The position numbers and the translations under genes are program-made. A model generated the notes under the pieces. It ran no database searches and had not been told where the DNA came from. It saw only the letters and a program-made list of their open reading frames with translations. From an uncultured Clostridia bacterium (GTDB taxonomy: Bacteria; Bacillota; Clostridia; Christensenellales; UBA1242): DNA of 64,000 nt. Location of the stretch: NCBI GenBank assembly GCA_934746515.1, contig CAKVFH010000001.1, positions 36,142 to 100,141 on the forward strand, read 5' to 3'. Shown here piece by piece: positions 1 to 24,878 of this stretch (position 1 is the stretch's first letter; every line of letters begins with the position of its first letter).

Positions 1-3000
1 GAAATCTCATATTTCAAATATTCTTCAAAAGTCATTTTGAGCAAGAAAAACGCAAATGTCTTCGGAAATAATCTATATTCTATTGATATTTCAAGTTCTA
101 CACTTGCAAATGATATTGCAGCAATTGTTGGAACAACAGATTTTGTTTATAGTTTGGTTGGTGAAGGTGACAATCAAGTTTTGATTATCTCTTACCACAG
201 AGACCACTTGATTAAGTTGTTTGCTCACTGGACCGCAAAAACTTATACATATAGATTTTATTTTGCTTATGCAACAGATGACGATGAAAATGAAGTAAAC
301 AGCATTTCATATTCTTCAAATTCAGGCAAATATAACAACTATCAAATTGATAAGTTTGTTGATATTACAGTGTCTTATGCAGAAACAAGAACACTTTTGA
401 CATTTGAAGACTTTGCTTCGCTTATTGCAAGCAAAGGGGTTACAGTCACTGTTCCAGAGCATTATAAAGCTTATGCATGGTTTAGATGGTACAATAACTA
501 TGATAACTTATCAGAGAGCACCGACAGCAATCCTGACTATGCATTAAACTCTGAAGATTGGTATATTGATAGGGGATATTACAACTCTATTTCTAAAAAC
601 AGCAATTGGTATGATCCAACCTTTGCAAACGATGACTTGAGCGTTCTTGCAAGCGGAACATGCTTCTCTGATGTTTCATATATGGCAATTTCTGGTCTTA
701 CCCAAGAAGATTATGAAAGTTTCTATTATGATGAAGTTACAAGAACTGTTAAAAACAATTCATTTAAGTATACATCAGACTTGATTTCTAGCGACAAATT
801 TATTTCAGCTGGAACATCAATCACAAAGCATTTTGTTGGTGATGAAACATTCTTTATTTATTACATTAAAGATATTTACTATTCATCATTCTACGATTCA
901 GATGCTAACACCGTTACTGTTTATGATGAAAACAAAGTTGATAAAGGTCACTATTATGTAACAGAAACAACACCTGTTTCAAATTATCCACAACAAATTG
1001 TTGTTGCTGGTGCAAAATATGTGTTTGAATCTGTTGAAACAGCACTTTTCTATGCTTACTACATCAATGGTACAAACTATGTTACATATAACTACAAGAG
1101 CGGAAAGGTTTACACCGGAAGAATTACATCTCTTCTTTTGAAAGAAAATAACTTCTTGATTCATGACCTTGAAGCTGATCTCGTTTATGAAGGCTTAACA
1201 TACACATTCGTTAAAAATGACGAAACAACAAGATTCTATTACTACAAATCTGGCGAAAGCTATTTGACTTATGACATTGTCAACAAGAAATTGTATTCTG
1301 GCAATGATATCCTAACTCAAATTTCAAGCTATCAACTTTCTGCATTCCCACAATACATTGACTATGTTGATGGCAATAGATACACATACAATAGAATTGA
1401 TGAATCACTTAAGTTTGCTTATTATACAAGCGGTTCAAACACAATCACATTTGATTATGATTTGAGAGTTACATATAATGGCACTCACACAACAAAACAA
1501 ACTTCAAACTATGTGTTCTTGACAACAACAGACCAAAAATATCATCTTCAAAATCGTCTTTATGCTGAAGACTTTGACTGGACTTTTGATCCATTCACAG
1601 CAATTTCAGAAAATACGAGAGTTGCAAGTTGGTATAATATTATTGGTTGGTGGGTTAAGATTGATCAAACATATTCTTATGTAATAAATGATCAAACCTA
1701 TCATGTTGATGACGAACATATTGACACATCATACTTTAATAATTATGATTCAAGTTCAGGTTATTACTACCACGAATTTACTTATTCATATTCTAAATCT
1801 GACGGCACATTAGATTATGCGCACTCAAGATTCTATTACTACACTGGTGATGACGGAATTGTTCATTTCAGATTTACACATGCATTCACTGATATTTATG
1901 TTTATGCAGTTTATCAGATGGTTGAATATGATGTTAATCTTGAAATCAATGCGCCAGTTGGCTCAACATATTTTCACCAAGTTGCAATTAAAAACACAAC
2001 TATTTCAAAGGAAAACTTCGTTTTGTCAGCTGATGATTACAAAAAAGCAATCACTGATGAATTTAATGTAATCTACACATATTACTATTCAGATTTGGAA
2101 AACGGTTACATTTATTATAAATGCGGAAACAAGTTCCTTAACTATTGCATTGCGGAAGAAAAACTATATCATGGCGTGATTGACGAAAGCGCAAACATTG
2201 TTTCAGATGAAATCAATGACAAGACAATCATTTACGGCAATCAAATTAACTATTATGGTTCTTATGATTCAAACAATGCTTATGACACCTTGACAAGAAT
2301 TGATAATCCATTTGCTTACAATGAATATATTGGCGCAAGCGATTACAATGACCTTGTTACAAAAGGTGAGTATACATTAAACAGAAATGGACTTGTTGCT
2401 TACACTCCAAAATTGTTTGTTTATACTGATAGAGCTGATGCAAGATTTTTCTTCAACGATTTTGTTTACAACAGAAGCGTTACTGCTTATCAATCTTATG
2501 ATACAAACAATGTTTATTTGGTTGAAGATTTCGATGATGCTGTTGTTCAAGACAATGCAAACAATGTTACAAAAACAAACTACGCTTTAACTCAAATTCA
2601 AGACAACAATTTGATTGCATATTTAGCGCTTAATCAAGGATACAGATTGCTTGAAAATAACATTTCAGTTAGAAATGGTTCAAATCACAGTGTAATTTCG
2701 GGTGAAATTAAAAATAGAACAGAAAGATCTTATGTTGATGAAACCAATGGTCCATCAAGAGTTATTTATTATGAATATATTGCAAACGGAAAAGTTATTT
2801 ATACTTACACTGAAGAAGAGTATTACAATGCTGCAACTCAAATTTTAAGTTATAAATACATTATTTCGTTCCCAGCAATCTCTCAAGATTATGACATGAG
2901 CTGGAATGTCACAAGCTTAACCTACGATTCGCTTGACTATTCAACATCAGAAGAAAATTCAAGCTCACAAGGTTATGTTCAAAAGGGAACAGATGTTGAA

Positions 3001-6000
3001 GATACATTGGATGACCAAGTTCAACTCACCAAAAAGACTGCAGGACAATTCTATGGCAATACACAATTCATCACATTCTATCCTGCAATGAACACAAAGA
3101 ACAATTTCTTTGATCAATATGCTTATGAACTTGACTATGTTGATTCATATTTAAGTAGGATTGACTTGTCGTCAACAAACGGAAGATATACAACTCTTGC
3201 TGACAACGCACTTGTTTCAACATTCTTCACTCTTGAGTATTATCTTGACACTGCAACGCAATATCAAATTGATTTTAGAAACTTTATTGTGAAAGATGCG
3301 TCAGGCAATATCGTTAATCCTGTTGATTTGGTTGCAAACCCAACCTACAAAATTTTGATTGACAAACTCCACGCAAACCATGGCACAACATTTGCTGATT
3401 TCGAACCAGGAAATGAATATAACTATAATGTTGAAAAGGCATTCATTCTTGAATTTAATGGCCTTGAATATTACTTGTATTTGTGTCACTACACCTATGG
3501 CACACATGATTATTACACCTACATTTTGTGGGCAGATACATGTGTTAAAAATAGTGGTCTTAAAGTTTCAACAACTTTCACAGACATCAAACACAACACA
3601 ACATTCTCTTCAAGTATTGTTAATGGTTCAAATGATCTCTATAAGAGTGATGCAAGCGTTGGAACAACAATCACAAACACTTCAAAAGCTGGTGTTGCAA
3701 GCTATTCTGATTCAATGGATCAAGCAAATATTTATCCATCAGACATCAATTCTTATGTAATTCGTCCACATAACGGATATGTTATTAACACAATCACAAT
3801 CACTTATGGAAACGGACTTGCAAAAATCAACTTAAGAAGAGATGAAAATGGAAATGTAACAGGTATAGATTCATATTTATATGCAGGCAAGTATACCTAC
3901 AAATATACCTATACAAACGAAGGTTACATTGACTTTAATGGCAACACAGGTGAAAGACAAGATTACCCAACAGCAACTGAATATGATTCAGACAACGATC
4001 GTTATATCAACCAAATTTCAACCTGGATGTATTTGTTCCATGACTATGATTTCATTTCTTATGATTATAATGAAGCTACTGGTTATGTAACACTTCTTAT
4101 CTATGGTATTTATGGTGATTGTTCAATCGTTGCAACAGCTGAAAGCTATGTTTCATTCAGACTTGAAGCAAATGAACTCACAGACTTTTATGCTAAAGAC
4201 GCAGCAACCTACATTGAAAACAATTATTCAGACAGAGTTTATAAAAACTATATTCACAAACCAACAACTGTTGATGAATTTAACAACTATTTGACATTTG
4301 GTTTTGAATATTACATCGGCTTGGATGAAGATGATAACGACACCTACATCAATGGCTGGTCAAATGAAACTCTTGATAACACTGGAAAATTTGCTTATTC
4401 AAAAAATCAAATGTCAAGCTTTGTGTTCGGAAAATATATGGATGGCGAAACACCTGTATATTATTTGGAACTCATCTATATTGGAAAAGCAAAGATATTT
4501 GATGCTGGCGTCACATTTAGAACTGTAAACTATAACTATACTTATAGAATCACAGACTTCATGGTTGCAAATTTTGAAAATACTCAAAATTCTGGCAATA
4601 TTTTCACAACGAACACAACTTCTAACACAGACTTAAAAGTTGGTGATTCAACTCTTGTTGATGAGACTGCTTCAGCAGGCAAATCAAGCTATAAGTCAAT
4701 CTTTATCAATGATGTTAGAAAATTGTTCAAAAGCTCTGCGATTGACAACACAAACTATGGTGGCTACACCATGGCAAGATTCTTTGTTCAGCCAATGAGA
4801 AATAATGATGAAGACACAATCGGAACACTTGTTCATATTGATTCATACCTTTACACAAAAGGCAACAATGATGATAGACAAGCTCGTCTTGATCCACTTG
4901 CTGATAATTCTTGGTTCAATGGTCACACATTGTCAAGAATTAGACTTGATTATTATCAAGCTAACAGAGATGAAAACTTGACTCAAGTTACATACAAAGA
5001 GTTTGAAGGCAGAACAACTGAATATTTCTATGGTAACAGCTATGATATTTACTATACAGAAATTGAAGGTTACACACTTTACAAGTTTAACTATCTTGGA
5101 ACAGATTACTTCTTCGATTATGACGGAAACTTCTACACATATACAAATGCTGTTGATAAGCAAGATGGATACATCAGAACAAAAGTTGTAAATGGGGAAA
5201 CTAAAACAACTCTTCCTGACTCAATCAGAGTAAGCTATTCAAGAGCAGCTGGTTCAACTTATGGTGTGTTCAAGTTTACAATCATTGCAGACTCTAACAC
5301 ATTTAGAACAAACTTCATTAAGTTCTATTCAAAACAGAAATCTTTGGGAATTACTTATAAATTCAATAAACATGAATCTACAAGTCCTGCAAAAATTTCT
5401 GGAAGAGAATATTTGACAAATGGTTCAATTGAATCAAATGAAAGAACACAAAGTTTGTTCTTCAATGAAGTTACATTGCTTTCTGCAAACAACTATTCAA
5501 TGGTTGGTTACACATTCATGGGGTATTCGTCAGAAAATGATTGGTCAAACTTCTCACACTGGTCAAGAGTTGACAATTGGGCAATCGGCGCTGACACTGA
5601 TATCTTTAACATGGACACCAATTTGATTGGTAGAGCATTCTATAGCTATAACTTCTATATTGAAGCTATTCAATCGTTTAGCTCTGAACCAACATTTGTT
5701 TCTCACGAAACAATTGTCACAATTGATGGTGAAAATACAAATCCTTATGATTACAACTTCTACAATGTTTTGAAAGATCAAATCCATGATTCGCTATACT
5801 TCTACAACAATGTGAAATTGTATTCAGTTTGGAAAGCTAACAAATATAACATTGTGTTTGATATGAATGACTATTCAAATGTTAATCCATTAAACACAAC
5901 TGTTTCAAAAGGTTCAACAGAAGCTCAATTCAATGTTTTGAACACAAACAATGTTCAAATGAGCATTCTTAACACAGACCACTATGATGATCCATTCTAT

Positions 6001-9000
6001 TTCATTAACGACGCTACATATCAACAGGCTAATGAAAACTATGAAAATGGCTACACTGACGGCTATTATTACGATAGCACAAAAACAAGAATCAGTATGG
6101 TTGTTACATTCGATTCTAACGATTGGTATTTGGTTTATAACGGAAAGACATACAATCTTGAAGATATCTTGATTGATAGATATGGTTATTCATGGTATGG
6201 TTGGTTTGTTTCAACCGATGGCAAGCTCGATTCAAACTTTGCAAGATTCTTTAACACTGACGGCAAACTTAACTGGACAAGCGTTATTGCATCAAACAGA
6301 GTGATTGAATCAAGAACACTTGCTTCTAAAGATACTGTTGATGACAGCAATAGACTCAAATTCGATTACGATTGGATTTGCAAGACCACATTCGTTGAGC
6401 CAACATTCGATACATCTTATGAGTATCGCAAAAATAACACCGACAGAGTTGACACATTGCACAGACTTGACATTGAGTATTTGAAACTTGATGAGTCATA
6501 TAATGATGTTGACTTTGAATATACAAGAAATTACTTTAGAAACACAGAATTTGCTGGAACAAGTGAATATAGCGATGTTTATTACAATCACAATGTTTAC
6601 GGAAAGTTCAAACTCTATGCTGGTTGGCAGGCTAACACCTACACATTAGCGTATGATTATGGAACTTATGGTATTGACACTGGCAAAACCAACAAGACCG
6701 AAAATAATGATTTGATGCACAATGAAGTTGTTGTTAGTGGAAAGAGCATTTTGGCATCTGCTAAACAGCTCCGTGGAACAACATCTCCACTTCAATCAAA
6801 TTCAGGCGACTATAACACACTTATATTCGATGTTGAATACAATCCACAATATGTGACAAGAATTGGTTACACATTCATGGGTTGGAGACTTGGTTTGACA
6901 TCTGTCAATTCAGTTTCAGGATTTGCTATTGATAATTCCGATAACAGTGCTGTTACAATTGATGAAAAAGTTTCAATTGCAAGCAAGGGAAGCAAGATTT
7001 GCATCAACTATAACTCAATTATTATTGATGACGGATCTGAAACAACCGGTGTCACAACAAACTGTTATCTATACAGAGATATGTCAAATGTTGCTGGTTC
7101 TTCTGAAACTCTTGGTGCATTCGAAACCTTGGGTGACAGCGAGTCAGATTGCAATTCAACACTCAATCACTATGTTGGCATGTATGCAATGTGGAAAACA
7201 AACATCTACACTGTTAAACTTGATGTCAATGCATCAGCAAACGACACGACAACATCTAACTATTTCTTAACAAATTCGTTAGAAAGACAACCACTTGCTA
7301 GTGGAATTATTCCCGTTAATATTTATGTTATTTTTGATACTAATGTTTGGTATTATGAAACAACATCTAGCGGAATGGATTTGACAGATGTAATTCTGGA
7401 AAAATTCGGTTACTTCTTCCTTGGCTGGTATACTGATGCCGAAGCAAAAGAAGGCAGAAACATACTTTCTCAAGACACAATAAATAGTGCACATTACACT
7501 GATTTCTTGATGACTGGAACAGATTACAACTATACAAATTCATACAACACCTATCCTGATAGAATTGATGACTTTGATGTTTATATTCAAAATTCAGCAA
7601 GAACAACCGCTGTTAAGCGTTTGGCTAGCGCTCCACAAATGAGAGTTCTTGATTATGCACTCTTCAATCAATTCGTATTCAGAACTTATGGTGAAACCTC
7701 AACAAACTCAAATCTTTACACATTTGAGTCAAGACTAAAAACCGCATACTCAAAAGTAAATGGTTACACAATCACAAATGATGATAAAATGTTCACTTCA
7801 AATATTACTGATGAATATTCACTTGCATCAAGAAAAGGCAACTGGGTAGAAATCAGAAACTATAATGAATCAACAAAAACTGAAACAACAACATTTGAAA
7901 TCACCATTTATGCAAAGTGGCAGGGTATTGTTTATGAAATCAGCTTCAATGGAACATCATTCGAAGATGATAGCGGTATTGGAACAACCAAAGCTCAATA
8001 CATCACTGAAAAAAATGGTCAAACTTATAATTCAGATTCAGCAAACTGTTCGATTTATGTTATGTTTGATAGAAACCTTTATACTTCAAGTTATAACGAA
8101 ATCTGGCAAGTTGAAAGCGACTATTACGCACAAATTGCAGATAACGCAAATGATATTGAAGCAATTACTAAAGGTTTGCACTTAAATGAAATTATCAATA
8201 TTGATAGATATGGCTACACCTGGACGGGTTGGTATACAAGGGGGTATGAATACTTACCTGATCAGACATTTAATGAAGTAAGCATCAAGCATGCAACAAA
8301 CGGAACCAAATCTGAATCAATTCCTTCAGAAACTGGTGATACAAGAGTTCCAACTTATACAGTTGAACAAAATGACGGCACTAATTATTATGTTGGAAAA
8401 ATGCTTGAAACTGATAATGTTTATATGGAAACCGACGGCTTCAATCATAGATATTACAGTTCACTTATTGTTGATGGTCATGACTATTCACAAAAGACAT
8501 ATAGGTCTTCATACAGCACAAACTATGTTCCTATCACAAACTACAATAAAGCAAATTATGGAACAGCTGCATATACAAAATTCAGTTTTCCAATCTATTC
8601 AGATTTGCAAACATTTGAAACAAACAAGGAAGACAAAACTTTCACATTCACGCTTTATGCTGGTTGGGAAGCTAACACATATCAAGTTTATTATGAATCA
8701 AACAGCGACAGTAGTTATGATAACAATTGGCTTGATGGCGTAAATACTCACGGACTTCCTTATGTCAGCGGTGCAAAACTTCGTAGCGAATATAGCAATC
8801 TTGCAATTGGTTCTTCACCAGCTTACAAGATTACTGCATATAATGGCACACCATATTCAGCAACACTCCTATTCGACGGTGATTATGAAAATGGTGACAA
8901 CGAAGGTTATGTTGAATGCACAGCATGGCAAAGATTTGGCTACACATTCATTGGTTATAGCATGGGTCACGGAACCGCAACTGACACATCAAGTGCACAC

Positions 9001-12000
9001 TTCTATGCAACAGTTGATTCTGGAGCAAAGAGCACACTTGTTAAACTTGACTATTATGCCGTTGCTTTCGGAACAAACAACTATGCATCATCTGGCAGAA
9101 ATGATTACAATTATTCAAGTGTTTCTTGTCTAAATAGCGATGCTTATTTGTATGGAACTTATGATATTGCAAGCAAAGATCTTTCAGACACAACAAAACG
9201 CGATTATGAAGAGCTTGGTGACAAATATGAAACATCACTGATTTCAACTTCAACAAACAATTATTCAAATTTCCTTAACGATGGAAAGAAAACATATACT
9301 TATGCTGTTGTGTTAAACGCATTCTATAGAGCCAATGTTTATAATGTTGGTTTTGATAGCAACGATTGCACAGACGGCAGGGGTTCAACCTATGCATTCT
9401 TTAAAGATACTGATGGTTTGGATGCTACTGGAAATCCATATCCAGCAGAGCTTAAACATACATATATTGAAGAAAATTGCGATAGAAATGGTGCAATAAG
9501 CGTTACATTTGACACAGCCGACTGGTCATTTAATGCCGAAAATGGTGGATTTGCCATGAGCGACATCAGAGCTGACAGGTTTGGTTATACTTGGATGGGT
9601 TGGTATACTCGAAGCACATGTTTCAACATTGACGGAAATATTGATGATGTTTGGAAGGCATACTATTACTACTTGATTATGACTGGTAACTCTGCAGGCG
9701 AATCTGACAAGATTATGGAAAAATTCGACTATAGCTTGTTCTTGACTTACTTTGTTGATGAATCAGCTGTAACCGAAGGTAGAAATTACAGCCAAGAAAC
9801 CCACAATGATAAAATGAACATCACGTGGAATGAAAGTGAAAATAGTTTCATCGTTTCTGGTGATGCTATTATCGAGAAATATCATGAGCACTTGATTACA
9901 ATCTTCGCTGGTTGGCAAGCAAATACATATAATTTGACATACTACTACAGCGATGTTGATTCAATCAAGAACTATGATAACAACTTAAGCAATCCTTTCA
10001 CAGGCGCTACATATTCATACAGAACCAGTTCTCCAATTGAAACACTTTCAAGATATGAAGCTGGAAACTTACAAACAACTGATGACTTGACAAGACAATT
10101 CTTCAGAACTGAAATGATTTTTGATAAAGAATATTCACCAGAATTCTTAACAAGAATCGGTTACACTTTCAAGGGTTGGAGATTTGGTCTAAACTCAAGC
10201 ACAGCTAACTATAATGGCACATTTATTGAAAATCAAAGAGCTAAAAACGGAACATTTGCTTCAGGCGAGAAGATTATTCTTGATAACAACTCAATTGTGA
10301 ATGTTTTGATTGATAGTTCAGGCATCAAATATGAATGTTACCTTTATACAGACACAATTTATTCAGATATCGACATCGGAAATGACAACTATTTCAGACT
10401 TGGAAATATTGAAGAATTGGGCGACACTGACACTGAATTTAATTTCAAAATCAGTAATGATGGCGAATGCACAGGATTGAACTTTAGTGTTACAAAACAC
10501 ACAGCACAACTATTTGCTATGTGGGAAAACAATGTTTATACAGTTGAATTTAATGTAAACAGAGATTTCAACTATACAAACGATCAAACAGGTTATTTGC
10601 AAGAAGATTCAACAATCGCAAACTACTTGCACAGACTTGCATATCTTGCAACACCAACAACAATTGGTGCAAATAGACAAATCAAAACAAACTCAACTTT
10701 GCAACAACTTGGCAATGATGACAAACTTTACAACATCGGAACAGATGTGACAAGCTTGCTTTCAATTGATTTAAGTTTAAATAGAATTTATTCAACAAAA
10801 CTTATTTCATCACTTCTCACAGACCTAGACGGTGAAAACAAGTATGCTGAAAAACTTGACAGTGAAGGATTCTTGTTCTCAAGAGAAGATTTTGACAATA
10901 TTTCTCTTGACTTTGGTGATTTTAACTATAATGGAAACTACACATCAGGCGATAAGAATGGTCAAAAGTATAGTTATGTTGCTTATGTAACATTTGATAC
11001 AAACGACTGGTGGTTTGAAACAATTGACGGTTCAACAATTGAAGAAACTCTTTATTTCATGATTCTTGAAAAACTTGGTTATTATTTCAAAGGTTGGTAT
11101 GTAAACGACGATTGCAATGATAATCAAATGCTTATCAGATACTATGAAGGTGAAGGGGATCAAAACCAAATTCTTGGTTTCTTCAACATTTCAGGTGCAA
11201 TGGATAATTACACCTATCGAGAAGATACAACAGCTGATAACAAATGGTATATGTACACAAACCCAACAACAAAGGCTGTTACATCTGACCCTGATTATTC
11301 TTATTTCTACAACGAAAGAATTTCAACATTTAGTTATCTTCCACGAATCAACTATAAGTTCTACTTGCAATTTGACAAAGAAATCAAGGCAAGAGATCAA
11401 GCAGAAGATTTTACTTATGGTAAGACTACTGAAGGAACATGGTCTGAAAATAGAAAGACTGGAACTTATGGATTTACATTGTTTGCAAAATGGACAAACA
11501 AAGTTTATACAGTTGAAGATTTTGACGGCAACATGGGTAAAGGTTCAACAAATCCTAAATTCTTCATTGACAATACTCAAAGCTACACAATTTATGGTGG
11601 TGCTTGCTACGCATTCGGAACATACACCGAAGCTAACCATTCACTATCTTGGGCTGAAGCTGGTATAGAAATCAAGATTCTATTTGATAGTGACAACTTC
11701 TTTGCTGTTTATAAAAATGGCGATCAAGAAATCATTATTAACGAATATATCAACAATATCATGGTTGATAGATATGGCTACACTTGGACAGGCTGGTCTT
11801 CAAACTTGGATCTTATTGACAGAACTCAAGTTATTGATGGACACCAACCAAATGAAAAATGGACATATTCTAACGATTATGACTATGACGATGAAACAAA
11901 GAAAGCTTGCGATGCTGTTCATTTTGGATATGATATATTGCGTTATGCTCAAACAAAGAGTGAAAGCGAAAGGAAATTAACTCTCTATGCAACTTGGATT

Positions 12001-15000
12001 GCAAACACCTATGCTCTTACATTTGACTTCCGCGATTCTGTTTCAAGTGAAACTTCAAAAACTGGATCTAGTGACGCTATGTTTGGTGATAACACACTCA
12101 CAAAATATAGAAACATTGTGTTTGATATGAACTATGATGTTAAGAAATACATGTTCACTGTTAAGCGTAATGGTTACACATTTGTTGGCTGGAGATTCGG
12201 TATTATTGATGAAGAAACCAATTCAATCATTTATGGTGATAGAATTGATTCGGGCAACATTTTCTGTTTGAATAATGACAGAATTATGAATGGCGACAAT
12301 GTGCTATTATTCACAAGAGATTTCACAGGTGGTTTTGAGAATGCACTTTTGTATCAAGAAACCTATGGCGATATGGAAGGATTAAACCATCCAACAAATA
12401 TTGCTGGTGAAGGTATGGTTCACTTTGTTTATGTGTTTGCTGAATGGAGTGCAATTGAATATACAATCGAATTCTATGGAAACCGTTTATATGGTTCAAC
12501 AACACCAATCTTTAACACAAGTGGTGAGTTCAACAACGATTACTGCGACATTAGATTGTATGTAAAATTCGATTCAAATAACTATTATCTTAAAAATGAA
12601 GATGGCACTATCATCGACAACTCAATCTTCAATGTTCTTGTTGATAGATATGGCTACACTTGGACAGGTTGGTATTATATTTATGGCAACTACAAAAATG
12701 ACATAATTTATTCCGACACAACCAAGAACAGAGATTCATATTTCCATTTCAATGATGAATATATGATTATCCCTGGAACTTCAATGAGAGATGAAAACAC
12801 ATCTCCAAAAACATTTACAAACGATATCTTTAGCACTTTGTTTGGTTCAAGATCTCATGAATCTGACTTAACTGAAGATTTCACAACAATCAGATTATAT
12901 GCTGGTTGGGAAGCTAACACCTACTCAATCATCTATAACACAGCTGACGCTGGAAGTGATTTGCAATATTACAATGATGCTTATAGTCATTCAAATCTTG
13001 GCAAATCACAAAAATCAAACAAGAGTGTTGGTTCAACAAAAATCAATCTTGAACAATCATTAACTCAAATGTCTGGAAAGAATATTGCAACAATCACATT
13101 TGATGATTCAAACAATACTTCATTCTTCCAATTGATCAGATCAGGTTATATTTTCAGAGGTTGGTCACTTTATAGAAACGACACTACTTCAGGTTCTTAT
13201 GATGCAAATGATTCAAGTTTTGCACTTATGCAAAGCAACTATCAAAAACCATCACAAGTAACTGATCACTTACTTTTGAACAAAACTTATGCAACTGATG
13301 AATATGAAAACAATAAAGACACAAGTTGCACAACAACAAACGCATTTTTATACTACTTCTTGGAAGATAGTGATGAATATGTTTACGAAACATTGGGTGA
13401 CAATGAAACTGAACGCGAAAGAGTGGTTGTTTACTACGCTTGCTGGGAAGCTAGAACATATCTCGTTTCGTTCAATGTCAACAATAGCTACACAAAGATA
13501 ATGGATGATCCAAACGAAAAAGCTAGACAAATTCAGTCTTCAACAACTCCTGGACCAATCAAAAACAAGAATGATAATGTTACATACAATGTGTTCGTAA
13601 CATTTGATACAAGCGATTGGTTTGGTGTTCCTGTTGATGGCGGTGACAAGACTAGCTCAATCATTTCACTTCTTTATGTTGAAAAACTTGGCTATTCATG
13701 GCTGGGTTGGTACACAACGCCAACACTTAATTGTGATACCGATGACGGAAGCTATATTTCATCAAAAGTATATGATGCACTCACCGGCGAAACTGGTGAA
13801 ACACTTTTGACTTTGGATGCTAACACATTCTACAATGTTGCACAATACAGTTCAGAGTATGACGGATACATTGCTAACAATGGTTACAATGCAACCGAAA
13901 AACAATGCTACCATTCAGGCACAATCACATTGTTTGCTGGATGGCAACAAAACACTTATCAAGTTGAAGTTATTTCCCGTGATTCAAACACTGTTGGAAG
14001 CACTGGTGCAATCAACTGGAGCATCGGTTCAACACCTGCATTCTTCAGAGATAATGCAACAGGTCTTTACAACGAAACTTACTATAACGGCGAAGATAAA
14101 CCACTTTATCTATTAAATGTTTATTTTGATAGCAATGAGTTCTATATAACAAAACTTATTGATGGGGAATATGTTCAAATCAATAAAACTGTTGCTGACG
14201 GAACAGAAAGATACAATTTGTATTATTTGCTTCTTGATAGATACGGCTACAGATGGAATGGTTTCTACTACGATCTTGAAGGTCTCGCTCAAAACCAAAT
14301 CGTTCCTGGACACACATCGGTTGGTTTAAGTGATTCTCCAAACTCTTATATTTCTAGTGGCGCTATTGCAATGTTTACAAACAGAACATATCAAGTTGCT
14401 AGCAGATATTATAGTGACATCGAAACAGATAAGAAATTCTACATTTTCGCATCTTGGGTTGCTAATGAATATAGCTTGATTTACGATTATCGTGATGCAA
14501 GCGAAAATTCAGTAAATGGAAACCTTGGTTCGACAAATGCAAGCATTATCACAACCGATTTCACTCAAAAGATTTTGTTCGATAACACAAGAACAACACT
14601 TGGTTCACAGCTTTACTATTATCAAGTTAAAGCAAGTAGAATCGGTTACGATTTCTTGGGTTGGAACTTAAACACAGCAATGTTCAACGACGCAAGCTAC
14701 AACGGAAATTATCCAGCAACATATTCAGTTGTTGATAATTTTGGAAATGTGAACGACGACTTCTTCTTGAGAATGAACAACGACTTCATGAGTTACGACA
14801 ACAAAATGATGCTTTATAGTCAATATTCTTCAGACAGCACAAACTCTGTTGAAACACTGGGTGACACAGAAAATGAACACTATATTGCTTTAATTGCTGT
14901 TTGGGTTGCTAGAGAATATAAACTCATTTTAAACGGAAACGACTCGTCAGAGAACAATGGTTCAACAAGCGTTGAATACAAAAACCCTGACAATGAAAAT

Positions 15001-18000
15001 CTTGAAAACATTCATGTTGTGTTTGATACAAACAACTATATGCTTAAAGATTCAAGCGGCTCAATTGTTGATAATCAATATATAAACAAAGTTAAGTTTG
15101 ATAGATTTGGTTATTCATTGTTGGGCTGGACTTACAACAAGGTTTATGCAAGAAACCTTAATACATCATCACCAAATTATTTGTATGATTTGGCTAATAT
15201 GTTAATAAACAATCTTGCAAACGATAGCTACATTGCTAACAATGTTAATGAAACTGAAAAAACAATAACTGTTTATGCTTGCTGGAAAGCAAACGAATAC
15301 ACAATCAACTTTAACTATAACGCTCCAACAACAGGCAACCTAACACCAAATTATTCACTTTCTAACATTGACAGCTTCTCATCAAGAAATGTTGCAAGCA
15401 TTATTGGTTCAACACTTTCAACAAGTCATAGTGAAACTATAAAAGTTACATTTGATGAAACAATAAGAATTCCAAACATTTCAAGGAATGGTTACGATTT
15501 CTTGGGTTATGCACTTGACGGAGATTTGAGCATTGCCAGAATCTTCACACCAGGAAGCAACAACACACCAATCATTCTTAATGATGAAACATATCATAAT
15601 GGATCAAATTCATTCATTTATGATAACGACTCGCCAGAAACTCTTGGCGAAAAAACACTTAATGGTTCTGTTTATTCAATAAATGTCCACGCATTATGGT
15701 CTCCAATAAAATATTCTGTGAAAATCAATGCAAACACTTCTACTGGCTCATCACTTGCATATATATTTGACATCAACACAGGAATATACCTTGTAACTCC
15801 TGCTATAGCCGATTTAGCTTACTTCATTGAATTTGATACAAACATCTGGTCAAAAGATATTTCATATTCAAACAATGATTTAACTGAATTGATTTTCGGC
15901 AGAGTGGGTTATTCTTGGTCAGGTTTATATCCAACAATTGATTGCACACTTTCAGAGCGCATGATGAATGTTGAAGGTGAAATAGCCACTAGAACTTTGG
16001 ATTCTTCACTATTTGATGACCTTGGCGAAAACATCAACTTGAGAACAAAAATCATTACAATTTATGCTGGCTGGAATGCTAAAACTTACAATGTAAACAT
16101 CAATCACAACCTATCTAACTTGGGCAATACATATAATGATGAGACAAGCAAGGTTTCATTCTTAACAAACGGCACAGCATCTGCAACATACAATAAAACT
16201 ATTTCTATTACATTTGATAGTGCGAACTGGTTGAACCTTCTCGGAAGAGATTCAGATACAATTATGGATAGATACGGCTTCGATTGGAACTATTTGTATT
16301 CAACAAGTTACTCTGCAATTGGATCAGAAATCACAAGTTCAACAACACTCAACCTATCATTGTTAAGCAATATCCTTTACGACAAACTTCTTGAAAATGT
16401 CAATCAAATTGATATTTTAAATGACTTTGACAACGAAACAGAATTTGAAGTATTTGCTCGTTGGAATGCACATATTTACACAGTTCAATTTAACTACAAT
16501 GATGCTAGATATAATGGTTCTGGCTACACCAATGCAACAACCACAAAAGGCGGAACAGAAACTGAAATAGCTCAAGAATTCAAAGTTCAACTTGGGCAGA
16601 CTTTGGCAGTTCCTGATATGTTCAGAGTCGGTTACAAATTTAAAGGTTGGATTATTGGTGACAAAGACGGAAGAATTTTGACAAGCATCACTGAAGAAGA
16701 ATATGAAACATTTAGAATTGATGACAATGGCACATTTAATTATGATTATCTCAACCTTATCGCATCAAGGCTATCAAATATGATTCCACTTTATTTCAAA
16801 AATTCTGATTCAGCTGATTTCACTAATGAAGTTTTGGGCGATGAAGATAAATCAGCAACAGAAAGAAAAATTTATGTATTTGCACTTTACTCTTCAGTTG
16901 AGTTTAAGATTCGATTTGAGCTTAACGATTCAGCTGTAAACAATGGTTCAACAAAGGCATTCTTCGAAAATGAAGGAGTATACAACTATGACACTTGCAC
17001 CGCAACCTGCACAATCAAATTTGCATCTAACAACTGGGTAGGAGTTGATGATGTTAAGATTGCAAGATTCGGTTACGATTGGACAGGTTGGTATTGCTCA
17101 TCAACCACAAACGACAGCAACTTTGTTGTATTTAAAGATAACAAGCCAATGCTTGACTATCTGTTATACACAAAACTGCAATTCGAAATTGGCGAAGATG
17201 AAGAAGATATTTACATTGTTCTATATGCTGGTTGGAAAGCTAAAAACTACACAGTGGTTTATGATGTTTCTTACACATCACCTGAAGCCGGGGGAACAAA
17301 CATTTCTAACGATTTGACACAGTTCTCAACACTTCCAACAATAACTCAAACATTTACATTTGATTCAAATGTGCCTGTTTACAAATTATCAAAGATTGGT
17401 TTTGATTTCATTGGTTGGTCATTCGATCCAGCAAAATACACCTATTCTATTGACACTGGAAAATCGACAAGAGAATCAAATCTTTCAATCATTTATCTCA
17501 ACAATGTTGAAGAAAACTTTGGAATAATCAAATTTGGTAATATGAGTTATTTTGAAAATAATCTCACGAATTACACTTATGACTCGATTGTTGATAACTC
17601 TGGAACTTCACTCATTTCATATCAAAATGACAATGAATTTATTTACTGCTTATATAACGATGAAGCATGCACCGTTCGCGAAAGTTATGCAGATGGTTCA
17701 AGCACACACTTTGTTAAACTTTATGCAGTTTGGGCTCCAAAGACTTATCAAATCACTCTTAAGTTTAATGACGCGCAAGATTCAAACAATGGCTCAACAG
17801 ATGCCTACATTTCAAAAGACCTTTGGTCATATAGTTTGCTTAACTTTGAAAACTATACAGAACAAGTTAGAAATGGAAATTCTGATTGGAAATGGTTTAT
17901 CACAATCGACAAGCCATTTGGAAAACTCACATTAAGTGAAGCACAAATTGATAGATACGGCTACACATTCATGGGTTGGTATTTATTTGATGGGGCAGAC

Positions 18001-21000
18001 GGATTGTTCGTTTCACCAAAGCAAGAAACAGCTTCAGTTCTCACAATTGACAAACTTGTTGAATATATCAATTATCTTGAAAGCCAAGGCTTGACAGCTA
18101 GCGAAAGTGAATTAGTATTGACCGCTCATTGGCAAGTTAATACTTATGAAATTTGCTATGCGACAAACCCTATTGGCGGTTCAACGACTGTTTATCAAGT
18201 TAATGAAATTCAGCAGGGCAACAGCCAAACAAAATATTTTTACAACAGCACAATGCAACAAACAATTGACTTTGATAGCAGAGCAGACTTCTCATTCATC
18301 CGCTTGGGTTACGATTTCAATGGCTACAGCTTTGTAAACTATTCAAAGTGGGAAGGTGAAACTCTCAACTACAAAAACGGCGCATCAAATATTATGCTCA
18401 ACAAAACAAATATTATCAGTTCATCAACAAACAGATGCTATTTGTATTCAGAACCAACAAGATCTGATAAACTCGATGAAGATGTTGAATTTGAAGCTTA
18501 TGGCGACAATGAAGCAAATCACTACATCGTAATTTATGTATTCTGGACAGCAATTGAATATGATATTACAGTTGCTATGAACAATTCTGGACTCTATAAT
18601 TTCAACCAAGTTGACTCTGGCTACAAAGTTAGACTTAACCAAAATATTATAGACATGCCAAAGAATTCAACAGTTTTGAATAATGGTATATTTAGTCAAC
18701 CAAATTACATTACATTTGCTGTTAAATTCGACTCTAGAATTTCAAGCGCTGTTTATAGAAACATCACAATCAACTATATGACTTTGATGGCAACGGGTTA
18801 TACTTACACCGGTCTTAACACGAATCCTGACAAGTCACTTGGTGAAGATTTGAATCTTTCACTTGAAGGTAATATTTTGAATGAAGATTTATTCTATAAA
18901 CTATTTATTTATTCTTACTCGACAGGCGATGATGGTTCACTCAATGAATATAAAACAGAACTTGGTTTGTCATTCGAGCTAAATGAAGAAGATTTGACAA
19001 TCACAAGAAATGATGATATTTATTCACAAAAGACATTCTCTCTATATGCTCAATATGAAATTAACAAATACACAATTTCTATCCAAGATCTTGATTCTTC
19101 AGATTATGGTAAAGGTTTGTATAAGCTTATAAACAGCAAAGAGTATGACAATAGCATTACAGATTTGAGTGAAGGTAAGGTTGAAAACTTGAATGTTGAA
19201 TTCTTCTCGAATGAATATGCTATCATGCTTCCATCTAGCGGTGGTAAATATGTGTCAAAGATTTACTTGTCATACACAACAGACTTTGATGCAACACAGA
19301 GAATTTTATCATTCACATTGAGCCTTGACCAAACAACACATATTCTTACATTTGAAGGCAATAAGACAGATTACGAAGCACTAAATTATGTGTTTAACGG
19401 ACTTGAACTTATTTGCGGGGAATATTCAAATAATGTATTCAATATCAATGACGACACAATTTCAACGACAATTAACTATGCTGATTTCGTTGGCGGTTAT
19501 TCATATTTGGCTTTGAAGTTTACAAACATCAAAACAAATATCAAGATTGCCTGCGAATACTCAACACAACAGTATGAAGTTAATATCAAGAAAGTTGTTA
19601 TCAATGATATTACAGACCCAACGGATCCAACAGGTGTTGCAACAGTATTTGTTGATTATGGTCAATATACTCTTTCTGATATCATGACTCTTTACACCGA
19701 CCAAGAATACGAAACAAGCCCTGTATGGTTCTATAACGAAGCTGTTGCTGGAAATGAAATTCCAACAGGAGATTATACAAAATATATCACTCATGCACTT
19801 GTGCTTGTGGCTAGATATAATTTGTCTGACAGTTTTGAATCAAAGAGTGTTAAGTTCTACACCTGGAACGATGGTGCAAGTTCATACAAACTCTACGATT
19901 CAGGCAAAGATTACATCTTCCAAGGCATTTCTGTAAGCGTCAATATTCTCGATAACTCAACAACCATCAACCACTATGGTGCTATGAAGACCTTAAATGG
20001 TTCTAACTATAGTTGGACATGGGCTGATTCACCAAAATCAAACTTCTCATTCAAATTCAATGCTTCTGACAGCGATTGGCTTGATTCGGGCGGTATTCCA
20101 CAAACAAATAAATATTCTTCAATCTATGCAGCAAGATTAAAGAGTATTCCACAACTCAATTTCGCTTATGGTGAAACATTTGCGGTTGGTTACATTTGTT
20201 TGAATGCTGAACAACTTTTAAGCAAAATCAACTCTGTTTTAAGTGAAAATGAAAAATATACTTATTCAACAATCTTGAATGTATTTGAAGAAAATATTTA
20301 CTGGTCAGTTCTTGATATTGTTGATGATGTTGCTCAAATTAAATTTATGGGCGATTCATCAAGCAAGCTTTACGGAAAAATCATACAAGCTCCAATTCTT
20401 ACAACTGAAACTGAAATTCAATCAAATGTTTATGCAATCCAAGCATATTCAGATGTATCATTCTCAATCACAGAAGATGCTAGACAATTCTTCACAACAA
20501 CAGAAGACACTCTTAATGTTGAAGTTAAGAACTTCCAAGATACAATTTCTTACTTCGAACCTAACTCTGATGTAATCAAATATTACAACAAGAACGAATT
20601 AAGATATGTTGTATTAAATGAATCTGAATTTAATGCTTACAACTATTATCGTTCACTTGGACTTTCAATTGAAACTGCACTTTCAAAAGTCATTGAGAAC
20701 TTTAATATTACATCAGCAAAAATTCAATCTAGCATTGATATTTCGAGTGGCTATGTGTTCTTCTATTTCAACAAGATGCCGGATTATGATGTTCATTCAA
20801 TCGTTGCTGTTTGTGAAAACTTCATCAAGAAGAACGCAAGCGCAATTGAATTCTATCCAACATCAAACAGATTCTCATTCACTGAAATTTCAATTTCTTC
20901 AAGCACAAACACTGTTGATAATAAAGAAGAAATTTCAATTATCATCAACAAAAACTTGATGAATACTGATTATGAAACAGGAAGCACTAAAGATACTAAT

Positions 21001-22479: not shown

Positions 22480-24699
22480 ATGAGTTATTTGAGTGGGTTA
22501 GAAGAAGAATTAAACAAAAAACTATTTTGCGAGCCAGCAATTGACGACGGCTCTAATGATGACACTTCGAAATTTGAAGAAAATAGAACAGAGTTAGTAG
22601 ACAAACAGAGTAGTAAATTTGATGAAATTAAGCAAAATTCAAGACCAAGCATTTTGGAAAGCTGTCTTTTTCAGTGTAGCGAAAAAACCAAGAATTGTTT
22701 TTATTTTGAAAACCTGACAGATGACGAATTTTTCAGTGTTAGCGGTGCAAATGATCAGTTTGTGAGTTTTTATAAAACAATAACAAAATCTGGCGTTGGA
22801 AGCGTGATTTTAGGCGGAGTATATTTGGCATATAGACAAAAAATGCCAAACAATGTTGCTAGAATTACACTTGATGAAACAATCATGGATAAATATAAAC
22901 AAATCACGAAAAACGCCCATACAACAAATTGCAAAATATACTTAAAAGTAAAGTCTTGCTATGGACGATTTAATTCATTTAATCAGTACTCTCAAAGCCT
23001 AAAATTAGCGTCAAATTATGGCCTAGATCCATCAAATAAACAAAGACTTTTAATCAGAATAAGTGATAATAAATGCAACGAAATAATAAATGATTTGGCT
23101 CGAACTGTAATGCTTTCAAATATCGCAGGATTTGATGGAATAATGATTGATGCAACATTTGATAATATCATGGGGGAATTGTCATCACAAGAATTTAATA
23201 AACGAGTGTTTGGATATTTCTCTGATACAAACGATTTTTTAAAGAAAGCATTGATAAATATTGATGCTAAAAACAATAGGATTATTTTAAAGTTAAGTGT
23301 TTTATCATTGTTTTCTTATGAAAAAGAAAACGCAAATCTTTGCAAAATTTCTCGAAATTTTGATGAAAATAAGCTATTTAAAAACATAAAAGAATATATC
23401 AGTCTCGGAGTTGATGCTTTTGAATTTGAATTTGGCACGCCAAATAATGAATTTTTTAAACACTTTAACAGCTTTGAAGGAGATCTATTATTTAAAGGTT
23501 TTTACTCAAAACTTCGAAAAAAATTTGAAGAAGAAAATATTTTAAACAAATTTGGCGAACCTGTTGATTTTTTCTATCATGACAAGTTCACAGAGTTAAA
23601 AGAAGTTGAAAAAATGATAAAAACAAACATAGTTCAATTTGTTGATATAACAAGAAATTTGCTGTCTGATAACAATTATCTCAAAAATATAATAAATAAT
23701 AAAATTGCGCTAAATTGTATAAATTGCTCAAATTGTGATAAAAAAGCACAATTTAACCATAAAATTGAATGTTTAATAAATCCTAGTTTAAATGATAAAA
23801 TCAAATTCTGCAGTGAAAATAAAAATAAAAATGTTGCAATTATTGGCTCTGGTATTTCAGGACTAATATGCGCAATCACATTAGCTGAAAGGGGATTCAA
23901 TGTCCATTTGTTTGAACAAAAAGATGAGTTAAACCCAAACGGAAAAGCAACATGTATTTATGGATTTGATAAAACTCTTTTAAATTATTACAATCAAATT
24001 GAATCAAGAATAAACGAGCTTGCGAGCAATAAAATGATTGTAATTCACTTAAACACAAAATTCGATTATATCAAAGAAAATGAAAGAGAGTTTTATTCAA
24101 TCATTGTTGCCACTGGCTATAAAACAAAATTTCTATCAATATCTGGTGCTGTTCTTCCACATGTTCAAAATATTTATGATGTTTTGAAAAAAGAAAGCGC
24201 TTTTAAAAATAGAAAAAATATTGTCATTTATGCGAAGTCTTTACTTTCTTTAAAACTTGCATTATATCTTTCAACAAAGCAAAAGGTGACTGTTATTATA
24301 AAAAGTTTGGATGGTTTTAAAAATGAGAAAAACGCAAATCTTTTCTATTTTTTCTGGAATTTATATAAAAACAATGCTAATATCCATTTTTTATCAAGAA
24401 TTACAAAAATCAATGAAGACAATCTCGACTTGATTATTAATAAAAATTTCAATCCAAAAAGTATTAACACATTACTAAAACTGATGTCTAACGAAAAAAT
24501 ATCTTCTAGTCAAGTTCAAATAAACATTGACTGTGACTATTTAATTTATGAGCCAGATCTTATGCCAAATAATAGTCTATATGCCAGTGTTGTGAAACAA
24601 AATTATCCGGGTGAAGTTTATTTGATTGGCAACGCTCTTGAAAATTCAGATTTAGAAGACACAATCAAGTCTGGGTATTTTGTTGGCAAAAATTTGTAA
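22480..24699 (+). CDS. Divergent 2,4-dienoyl-CoA reductase (FadH)/NADH:flavin oxidoreductase-family protein (OYE-like barrel + 4-Cys cluster motif + FAD/NAD Rossmann domain)
   Basis: 739-aa ORF. It has the Cys motif CINCSNC-x11-CLINP, followed ~25 aa later by VAIIGSGISGLICAITLAERGFNVHLFE (GxGxxG + acidic end). The segment GFDGIMIDATFDNIM...RIILKLSVLSLF aligns by eye with the G[YF]DG[VI]E...RLS region of FadH/OYE enzymes. There is no Shine-Dalgarno sequence before the ATG. Confidence 0.6.
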   Translation: MSYLSGLEEELNKKLFCEPAIDDGSNDDTSKFEENRTELVDKQSSKFDEIKQNSRPSILESCLFQCSEKTKNCFYFENLTDDEFFSVSGANDQFVSFYKTITKSGVGSVILGGVYLAYRQKMPNNVARITLDETIMDKYKQITKNAHTTNCKIYLKVKSCYGRFNSFNQYSQSLKLASNYGLDPSNKQRLLIRISDNKCNEIINDLARTVMLSNIAGFDGIMIDATFDNIMGELSSQEFNKRVFGYFSDTNDFLKKALINIDAKNNRIILKLSVLSLFSYEKENANLCKISRNFDENKLFKNIKEYISLGVDAFEFEFGTPNNEFFKHFNSFEGDLLFKGFYSKLRKKFEEENILNKFGEPVDFFYHDKFTELKEVEKMIKTNIVQFVDITRNLLSDNNYLKNIINNKIALNCINCSNCDKKAQFNHKIECLINPSLNDKIKFCSENKNKNVAIIGSGISGLICAITLAERGFNVHLFEQKDELNPNGKATCIYGFDKTLLNYYNQIESRINELASNKMIVIHLNTKFDYIKENEREFYSIIVATGYKTKFLSISGAVLPHVQNIYDVLKKESAFKNRKNIVIYAKSLLSLKLALYLSTKQKVTVIIKSLDGFKNEKNANLFYFFWNLYKNNANIHFLSRITKINEDNLDLIINKNFNPKSINTLLKLMSNEKISSSQVQINIDCDYLIYEPDLMPNNSLYASVVKQNYPGEVYLIGNALENSDLEDTIKSGYFVGKNL

Positions 24700-24703
24700 A
24701 TGC

Positions 24704-24732
24704 TTGACAGAATTTTTAATGTAATATATAAT
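24704..24732 (+). promoter_or_regulatory. Consensus sigma-A (sigma-70) promoter for the cysS leader
   Basis: TTGACA (24704-24709), a 17-nt spacer, then TATAAT (24727-24732). Both hexamers match the consensus perfectly. Confidence 0.7.
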
Positions 24733-24755
24733 TTTCATATAAAGGAAATAAGTTT

Positions 24756-24779
24756 ATGAAAAAATGTTGTTGTAACTGA
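24756..24779 (+). CDS. Candidate leader peptide MKKCCCN (three consecutive Cys codons) upstream of cysS
   Basis: The ORF reads ATG AAA AAA TGT TGT TGT AAC TGA. An AAAGGA Shine-Dalgarno sequence lies 9 nt upstream (24741-24746). The ORF sits between the consensus promoter and an intrinsic terminator, directly in front of cysS. Confidence 0.5.
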   Translation: MKKCCCN

Positions 24780-24853
24780 ATATTATTTTAAACCTTAACA
24801 CTCTTAAGGTATTTTCAGTTATCTAATATTTTTTAAAGGTGAGTAGATAACTG
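24773..24853 (+). promoter_or_regulatory. Alternative RNA pairings of a putative attenuator (anti-antiterminator 1:2 and antiterminator 2:3)
   Basis: - Region 1, TAACTGA (24773-24779; last sense codon plus stop of the leader ORF), is complementary to TCAGTTA (24815-24821).
- Region 2, CAGTTATCTA (24816-24825), is perfectly complementary (10/10) to TAGATAACTG (24844-24853). That sequence spans the 5' arm, loop and 3' arm of the terminator.
- A local hairpin, ACCTTAA-cactc-TTAAGGT (24792-24810), lies between regions 1 and 2. Confidence 0.5.
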
Positions 24854-24868
24854 CTCATCTTTTATTTT
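24835..24868 (+). terminator. Intrinsic terminator (attenuator) 10 nt upstream of the cysS start
   Basis: The stem is AAAGGTGAGTAG / CTGCTCATCTTT around the loop ATAA (12 bp including two G-U pairs), followed by a TTTTATTTT run. The cysS SD (GGGGGA, 24870-24875) and ATG (24879) follow immediately. Confidence 0.7.
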
Positions 24869-24878
24869 CGGGGGAAAT

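Follow-up and report, generated by a model that had tools for sequence, protein, structure and literature searches.

A period-five array of two diverged, probably Flg_new-related module types in a giant protein of an uncultured Clostridia bacterium

Introduction

Super-repeats, in which a fixed order of domains is itself repeated, are well known from titin, whose A-band part is built from 7- and 11-domain units of immunoglobulin (Ig) and fibronectin type III (Fn3) domains (PMC10665226). In this study, we analysed a bacterial array of this kind in a window of 64,000 nucleotides (nt) from the genome of an uncultured Clostridia bacterium (assembly GCA_934746515.1, contig CAKVFH010000001.1, positions 36,142 to 100,141 of the forward strand); positions given below are those of the window unless a genome or locus is named. 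The array lies in ORF1, an open reading frame (ORF) of which the last 7,457 codons and the stop codon are in the window (1-22374, plus strand), and it comprises 26 divergent modules that resemble Flg_new (InlB B-repeat-like) domains (5323-19056, plus strand) and belong to two types, A and B, in the order ABABB four times followed by ABABAB. As in titin and nebulin, a set order of two domain types recurs along the chain, domains at corresponding places of adjacent super-repeats resemble each other more than they resemble the remaining domains of their type, and the arrangement is old, is kept between species and would have arisen by block duplication. In contrast to titin and nebulin, the protein studied here is bacterial and extracellular, has another fold, contains only four to five units and has no known periodic partner, and its positional homology fades past the neighbouring unit.

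Proteins with Flg_new domains are viewed as adhesin-like and are enriched in gut-associated microbes (PMC9723798), and the Listeria-Bacteroides or InlB B-repeat fold was described by Ebbes et al. 2011 (cited in PMC9723798). The ORF1 modules share with this family the first strand Y-x-V-x-F, the R-x-GY-x-F-x-GW core and the last strand L-Y-A-x-W (PF09479; PF18998, Flg_new_2), as well as the arrangement in tandem arrays, found in surface proteins of microbes associated with the gut. They differ from it in their length, which is 115-323 amino acids (aa) against the canonical ~65-70 aa, and in forming two insert-bearing subtypes in fixed order. Long stalks built of two related types of repeat, which presumably hold out an adhesive region, are also formed by the E-G5 repeats of SasG/Aap and by the type 1 and type 2 Mub repeats of MUB from Lactobacillus reuteri, and the Mub repeats are beta-grasp-like. 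SasG/Aap and the MUB proteins carry LPXTG anchors and have near-identical or block-wise repeats, whereas the ORF1 protein has an N-terminal anchor and no LPXTG, and its modules are strongly diverged and follow a period of five. Giant proteins have reportedly been found in bacteria with small or predatory lifestyles; ORF1 resembles these in being a repetitive gene of more than 10,000 aa for an extracellular product in a small genome, and differs in its phylum (Bacillota, class Clostridia, from the animal gut) and its domain family (Flg_new). The super-repeat itself is a familiar phenomenon.

Results

The motif G[YF]x[FWYL]x, followed by G[WFLY] or YL, was found at 26 sites in the part of ORF1 covered by the window, with GY anchors spanning nt 5506-18796, as compared to a mean of 0.31 and a maximum of 3 occurrences in 500 shuffles. 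This result bears out the 26 GY-x-[FW]-x-GW modules counted in an initial annotation of the sequence. The module border was set at the W of the conserved L-Y-A-x-W strand, after which the next module opens immediately with x-x-x-Y-x-V-x-F, and the resulting 26 modules (M01-M26, all on the plus strand) measured 115-323 aa. Unit 1 (5323-8667; 1115 aa, 3.3 kb) consists of M01 (5323-5832), which is an atypical A module, M02 (5833-6627, B), M03 (6628-7194, A), M04 (7195-7920, B, with E-K-F-GY) and M05 (7921-8667, B). Unit 2 (8668-11997; 1110 aa, 3.3 kb), which is collinear with unit 1, consists of M06 (8668-9327, A), M07 (9328-9915, B), M08 (9916-10524, A), M09 (10525-11493, B, with E-K-L-GY) and M10 (11494-11997, B). 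Unit 3 (11998-14457; 820 aa, 2.5 kb) contains M11 (11998-12447, A), M12 (12448-12909, B), M13 (12910-13446, A), M14 (13447-13944, B) and M15 (13945-14457, B), and unit 4 (14458-16464; 669 aa, 2.0 kb) contains M16 (14458-14904, A), M17 (14905-15285, B), M18 (15286-15699, A), M19 (15700-16074, B) and M20 (16075-16464, B). The array ends in an ABABAB tail (16465-19056; 864 aa) formed by M21 (16465-16890), M22 (16891-17235), M23 (17236-17733), M24 (17734-18132), M25 (18133-18546) and M26 (18547-19056).

The mean Smith-Waterman score was 73.9 for same-type pairs vs 47.6 for mixed pairs, and none of 10,000 permutations was as extreme. In a maximum-likelihood tree of the 26 modules, the 11 A and the 15 B modules stood on opposite sides of a single branch, which was seen in none of 500 shuffles; in a tree of 102 modules including orthologues, this branch had a support of 95 in the Shimodaira-Hasegawa-like approximate likelihood ratio test (SH-aLRT). 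The split obtained without supervision matched the earlier label of every module (26/26), so that both the two subtypes and the order proposed in the annotation, ABABB four times and then ABABAB, were recovered. Between the GY-x-F-x-GW strand and the last strand, type A modules carry an insert of ~65 aa that comprises helices and a beta-hairpin with the motif E-x-L-G-D; E-x-[LY]-G-[DE] was present near the C terminus of 10 of the 11 A modules, the exception being M01, and in no B module. Type B modules have an extra F-D-[ST]-N-x-W strand region (an F-D-[ST]-N-like motif was found in 14 of 15) and usually D-R-[YF]-GY-x-W-x-GWY.

Since the type pattern itself has a period of five, only same-type pairs were compared in the search for positional homology, and permutations were done within types. 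Modules five positions apart were enriched in similarity when single sequences were used (z = 3.8, p = 0.0003), and also when profiles of 6-7 orthologues per position were compared by hhalign (z = 5.35, a value that none of 20,000 permutations reached; p < 5e-5). No significant enrichment was observed at offsets 1, 2, 4 and 6-15, and a raw Smith-Waterman test pooling offsets 5, 10 and 15 was not significant (p = 0.19) because the signal is limited to neighbouring units. Self-BLAST of the whole protein gave the identity match only and was replaced by BLAST of overlapping 400-aa chunks, in which the diagonals of high-scoring segment pairs (HSPs) continued collinearly over the borders between modules. 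At offsets of 1096-1220 aa, M01-M02 paired with M06-M07, M02-M03 with M07-M08, M03 with M08 and M04 with M09; at offsets of 817-823 aa, M10-M11 paired with M15-M16, M11-M12 with M16-M17 and M12-M13 with M17-M18. The period-five homology is real.

The earlier assignment of the B modules to positions 2, 4 and 5 was the best of 216 within-unit alternatives, and the matching of unit 1 with unit 2 ranked first of the 12 possible. Among the clades that join different positions in the 102-module tree were M03 with M08 (support 89) and M04 with M09 (98). No other two modules of the array are as similar as M03 and M08, which share long alignable inserts (Smith-Waterman score 192, hhalign score 245). 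Among the B modules of units 1-4, D-R-[YF] before GY was missing only from M04, M09, M14 and M19, all of which occupy position 4. This held in every orthologue, and the probability of all four landing in one given position class by chance is 1/495. The initial annotation had taken E-K-[FL]-GY (7408, 11077 and 13690) as the marker of position 4. All three copies are present, and E-K is conserved at M04 and M09 among the orthologues; the full E-K of M14 is specific to the window lineage, as the orthologue P0003 (described below) has S-K and the other five species have R at this place. The lack of D-R-[YF] is, thus, a better position-4 marker than E-K. In terms of a super-repeat, equivalent positions were closer to each other in neighbouring units and for B modules, and were not closer for A modules or at offsets 10 and 15.

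A 33-nt tract in M10 and M12 was alike except for one base; it lies inside a 67-nt stretch of 78% identity (11734-11800 in M10 and 12610-12676 in M12) and encodes VDRYGYTWTGW in both modules, while the flanking sequence has diverged. Judged by this local identity, the tract looks like a small gene-conversion patch, which may explain why M10 groups with M12 in the large tree.

A protein database search retrieved P0003 (63% identity, 6,975 aa) and P0004 (30% identity), a fragment named 'InlB B-repeat-containing protein'. A genome search retrieved G247, a genome of the same genus in which a frame located at the end of a contig spans at least 9,269 aa (locus L017), and the loci L015, L018 and L019 from other metagenome-assembled genomes (MAGs) were added by an alignment search with M10 orthologues. 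A locus search with a 1,489-aa piece of the protein gave no match. The genomic loci were cut into modules by a position-specific scoring matrix of the boundary, and P0003 and P0004 were cut by a regular expression, a few of the borders being placed manually. In all relatives examined, down to ~30% identity, the module chain maps one-to-one onto M01-M26: P0003, L015, L018 and L019 contain M01 to M25 or M26 in unchanged order, and the P0004 fragment (locus L014) starts at M08 and has exactly 19 modules, which keep the order M08-M26. Each module position formed its own orthologue clade in the 102-module tree, indicating that all 26 modules predate these species. At the DNA level, no repeats beyond motif-level matches (67 nt or less) were found in the window, which excludes recent amplification and assembly collapse. 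The array is ancient, and the view that it is not a simple tandem amplification, already taken in the annotation, is supported.

The L017 locus of G247 (JAFUSN010000003.1) was the only one with extra modules. It has 31 modules, in which M03-M07 (A-B-B-A-B) are present twice in tandem and in register (L017 3362-8857; copies of 2,763 and 2,733 nt), and each extra module best matches its own paralogue and M03-M07 of the window. The two blocks are 51% identical at the protein level and are sisters with weak support (67/61), so that the event is old, and it may also have been a loss in the other lineages. The sole insertion or deletion (indel) among the relatives examined is, thus, exactly five modules, that is, one period. 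Unequal recombination between M03 and M08, which is proposed because these two are the most similar pair, would yield exactly the M03-M07 block.

Module length dropped along the array (Spearman rho -0.75, p = 1e-5), in line with the unit lengths of ~3.3, ~3.3, ~2.5 and ~2.0 kb estimated in the annotation. Five of the six orthologues compared showed the same drop (rho -0.56 to -0.72, all p < 0.003), suggesting that the gradient is ancestral; in the P0004 fragment, which begins at M08, it was not significant (rho -0.27, p = 0.25). The unit sums of L015 were 878, 859, 749 and 668 aa vs 1115, 1110, 820 and 669 aa in the window, and the lineage of the window and P0003 has ~230 aa more in each of units 1 and 2. 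Across these sequences, the size of the inserts appears to change readily in evolution, above all in units 1 and 2. The annotation had ascribed the gradient to inserts that were lost, or gained upstream. The gradient is partly ancestral, and the ~230-aa lineage difference in units 1 and 2 agrees with either a gain or a loss of inserts. At the level of single modules, M02, M04, M05, M06 and M09 (within 5833-11493) were 40-110 aa longer in the window and P0003 than in L015, L017, L018 and L019, and M09 was long in both the window (323 aa) and P0004 (299 aa).

Several comparisons relate the modules to Flg_new. The P0004 orthologue of M14 matched PF09479 above the Pfam gathering score of 27 bits (39.5 bits, E = 6e-10), and weak matches were obtained with 3 of 11 A and 3 of 15 B modules of the window (E = 0.006-0.009). 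A profile of the A-B pair (61 rows) searched against 1.84 billion representative proteins gave 12,125 matches at E <= 1e-3, and the matches outside the family of ORF1 aligned in many short stretches. Four of these many-stretch matches were checked (E ~1e-159 to 1e-60) and contained 12-38 canonical Flg_new repeats (Pfam E = 1e-195 to 0); canonical Flg_new proteins matched both the A half and the B half of the profile. These sequence comparisons indicate that the modules are probably kin to Flg_new. The canonical unit of ~65-70 residues is not matched in length, the extra residues lying in the type-specific inserts, and when A was compared with B by hhalign, the alignment was confined to the 16 columns of the GY-x-F-x-GW core. 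The A and B alignments were also used as profiles against the PDB, which gave no meaningful match.

M21-M22 (16465-17235) was modelled by AlphaFold2 with the 61-row alignment (mean predicted local distance difference test score, pLDDT, 85; predicted template modelling score, pTM, 0.81), and a model of M16-M17 based on an 11-row paralogue alignment (pLDDT 51) was discarded. In the M21-M22 model, the A module has three short helices and a beta-hairpin between its GW strand and its final strand, and this final strand (131-144) passes with almost no break into the first strand of B (146-152). This continuous strand and the high pTM suggest a fixed A-B geometry, and the model suggests that the junctions of the stalk may be stiff. 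By Foldseek probability, the top structure was InlB (residues 36-392 including the B-repeat; 0.84, E = 0.27), followed by the cell-surface protein YwfG (0.69, E = 0.02-0.04) and, at low probabilities, by ISG15, SUMO and Hub1; the scores are lowered because the query consists of two domains with inserts. The predicted structure is consistent with a beta-grasp-like B-repeat fold.

At least 13 further related modules are present in ORF1 upstream of the window. Those of an upstream array (aa ~966-3063 of the full protein; locus L012, G000:C1:21577-36141, where G000 is the host assembly and C1 is a contig of it) are ~135-145 aa long with some pieces double. They contain GY-x-F-x-GW motifs, have Y-A-x-Y instead of Y-A-x-W at the end of the last strand, and represent a third module subtype. 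A Pfam search with the 4,855 aa of ORF1 upstream of the window gave no matches. A module pair, A0-B0, is located at aa 4453-4760 of the full protein, also upstream of the window. It ends the first copy (aa 3616-4665) of a ~1,050-aa segment that is duplicated at an offset of ~2,200 aa, and the second copy (2875-6234, plus strand; aa 5830-6949 of the full protein) ends in M01-M02. The best relative of M01 was A0, with a Smith-Waterman score of 114 vs 77 for the best module within the array, and E-x-L-G-D is absent from both. Based on this relationship, unit 1 is better written A'-B-A-B-B, with M01-M02 having a duplication history of their own. The description of unit 1 as a regular ABABB, therefore, stands as far as its collinearity with unit 2 is concerned and fails for M01, an atypical A whose nearest relative is a module outside the array.

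The host assembly (G000) is a MAG of 1,169,382 bases in 27 contigs, and the window corresponds to C1:36142-100141. Two giant open frames in the window converge on a small island of housekeeping genes that lies between them. ORF1 runs past the left edge of the window; its frame is open for 12,328 codons (C1:21529-58512, plus strand), and the gene counted from the ATG at C1:21577 encodes 12,312 aa (C1:21577-58515, plus strand). Its N terminus, MKKLSRKVKSILTIAIALVCVIAIAVCAIVVG, has a basic stretch followed by ~23 hydrophobic residues and constitutes an N-terminal signal-anchor. The C terminus ends in ...TSLSTILNIIDSVNS; neither an LPXTG motif nor a hydrophobic tail was found there, and the only hydrophobic anchor is the N-terminal one. 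Together, the six open frames that reach 2,000 aa or more (the largest has 12,328 aa) account for 9.9% of the 1.17-Mb assembly. Three of them cluster around the window (C1:5051-21067, plus strand; ORF1 itself; and C1:68375-100441, minus strand), and the others are at C2:48023-59092, C2:64282-78021 and C11:25485-31742. In the four giant frames read from their start (three on C1 and one on C11), a basic and then hydrophobic N-terminal stretch was present. Genomes of the same family measure 0.8-1.3 Mb, and the related MAGs come from roe deer gut, goat gut and other sources too. ORF2, the giant gene on the minus strand, was considered as a paralogue of the array and was rejected, as it is devoid of such modules.

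A gene similar to FAD/NAD (flavin/nicotinamide adenine dinucleotide) oxidoreductases and cysS are located directly downstream of ORF1 (22480-26291). The same order was observed in the roe-deer MAG that encodes P0004 (L014 13095-16840), indicating that the giant gene is in a conserved chromosomal context. Two ORFs in alternative frames lie wholly within ORF1 (8291-8743 and 11117-11668, both plus strand; 150 and 183 aa), and both are most likely chance frames in sequence of low guanine-plus-cytosine content.

Discussion

Based on these results, we propose that positions 5323-19056 would encode the distal stalk of a giant extracellular protein with a single N-terminal membrane anchor, made by a bacterium whose genome is reduced. 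Unequal recombination would have copied blocks of five consecutive modules, giving the ABABB period, and, by the time the present species separated, the blocks would already have diverged to identities of 20-30%. Later changes would comprise gains or losses of inserts, small conversion patches and one more five-module copy in one lineage. The stalk would most likely act as a semi-rigid rod and keep an adhesive or interaction region well away from the cell, and the unlikeness of neighbouring modules would limit misfolding between adjacent domains. We give a probability of about 0.72 to the reading that the array is a stalk of divergent Flg_new modules, grown by five-module block copying and likely serving as the semi-rigid rod of an adhesive region. 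The evidence for five-module block copying is strongest in units 1 and 2, in the B positions and in the extra block of G247.

A number of observations weigh against this proposal. As for the domain family, the window protein scored below the threshold of PF09479 (19.4 bits, E = 0.0011), NCBIfam gave no match above threshold with it, and Foldseek found no match in the PDB at E <= 1e-3 for the M21-M22 model. As for the period, offsets 10 and 15 showed no excess similarity, while offset 3 was weakly enriched (z ~3.2). The assignment of the A modules to positions 1 and 3 ranked only fourth of 8, and M11 was closer to M03 and M08 than to M06 and M16, so that the A modules of units 3 and 4 are not sorted by position. 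The large tree also grouped M05 with M07 (support 86) and M10 with M12 (84), both at offset 2. The silence of offsets 10 and 15 and the unsorted A modules leave a fourfold copying of one cassette unproven; together with the signals at offsets 2 and 3, they point to a history of several steps or one blurred by gene conversion. In the initial annotation, an ancient duplication of a five-domain cassette had been proposed, with equivalent positions expected to cluster in a module tree. Its age, the homology of neighbouring units and the B positions hold, and two equivalent positions of units 1 and 2 (M03 with M08, M04 with M09) do cluster in the tree; one cassette copied four times, and a clustering of A modules across all four units, did not emerge.

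Among the competing explanations, the one that fares best, unlikely as it is, takes ABABB as a selected structural period and not as a relic of duplication, the five modules forming a super-domain or one turn of a fibre. Under this explanation, the strict order kept down to ~30% identity and the in-register indel of five modules would reflect selection on register and not just recombination between the modules that are most alike. How far the stalk reaches would then depend on how many periods it has, or this number would be fitted to a periodic partner on a host cell or partner cell, in the way that titin super-repeats match the thick filament.

It is less probable again that the true unit is the A-B pair, with an extra B inserted independently in several places and the period of five coincidental. 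The purely ABABAB tail fits this idea, as do the alignment of A-B pairs at offsets 2, 3, 7, 8 and 10, the enrichment at offset 3 (z 3.2), the weak grouping of the position-5 modules M05 and M10 with the position-2 modules M07 and M12 that follow them, and the defined A-B pair predicted by AlphaFold2 (pTM 0.81). However, offset 5 is by far the strongest (z 5.35, p < 5e-5), the HSPs are collinear over B-B-A borders (M10-M11 with M15-M16), the partition of the B modules ranks 1 of 216, the position-4 signature is present in four of four units, and the sole indel among the relatives examined is exactly five modules.

A convergent constraint without shared ancestry of a cassette, exerted by a five-module structural super-domain or a periodic partner, is more doubtful still. 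Such a constraint would account for an ABABB order that is kept in every relative examined, for the one indel being in register and for the conservation of the position-4 signature, but not for the long alignable inserts shared by M03 and M08, nor for the G247 block, which shows real block copying. Moreover, the similarity decays with distance, offset 5 being enriched and offsets 10 and 15 not; this decay argues for descent, since a positional constraint should hold equally at 10 and 15. Finally, an artefact of classification by eye, or of misassembly in a 27-contig MAG where repetitive genes are prone to assembly errors, was rejected as highly improbable, because the unsupervised tree recovered the labels exactly, the 26-module order recurs in independent MAGs from different samples, and modules of 20-30% identity with no DNA repeat of more than 67 nt leave nothing to collapse.

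The block-copying history proposed here would make ORF1 an example of how a bacterial giant protein reaches 12,000 residues, namely through ancient duplications of blocks from a cassette with two domain types, after which the copies diverged independently for a long time. The one-to-one orthology of the modules in the relatives examined provides material for studying the evolution of domain arrays and the avoidance of misfolding between domains. For the Flg_new family, two insert-bearing variants are defined that present Pfam and NCBIfam models largely miss, and profiles built from both would improve the annotation of proteins in gut metagenomes. Since ca. 10% of the 1.17-Mb genome is spent on six giant ORFs, and the four read from their start have a hydrophobic N-terminal stretch, these findings suggest that surface attachment is central to the probably dependent way of life of this organism.

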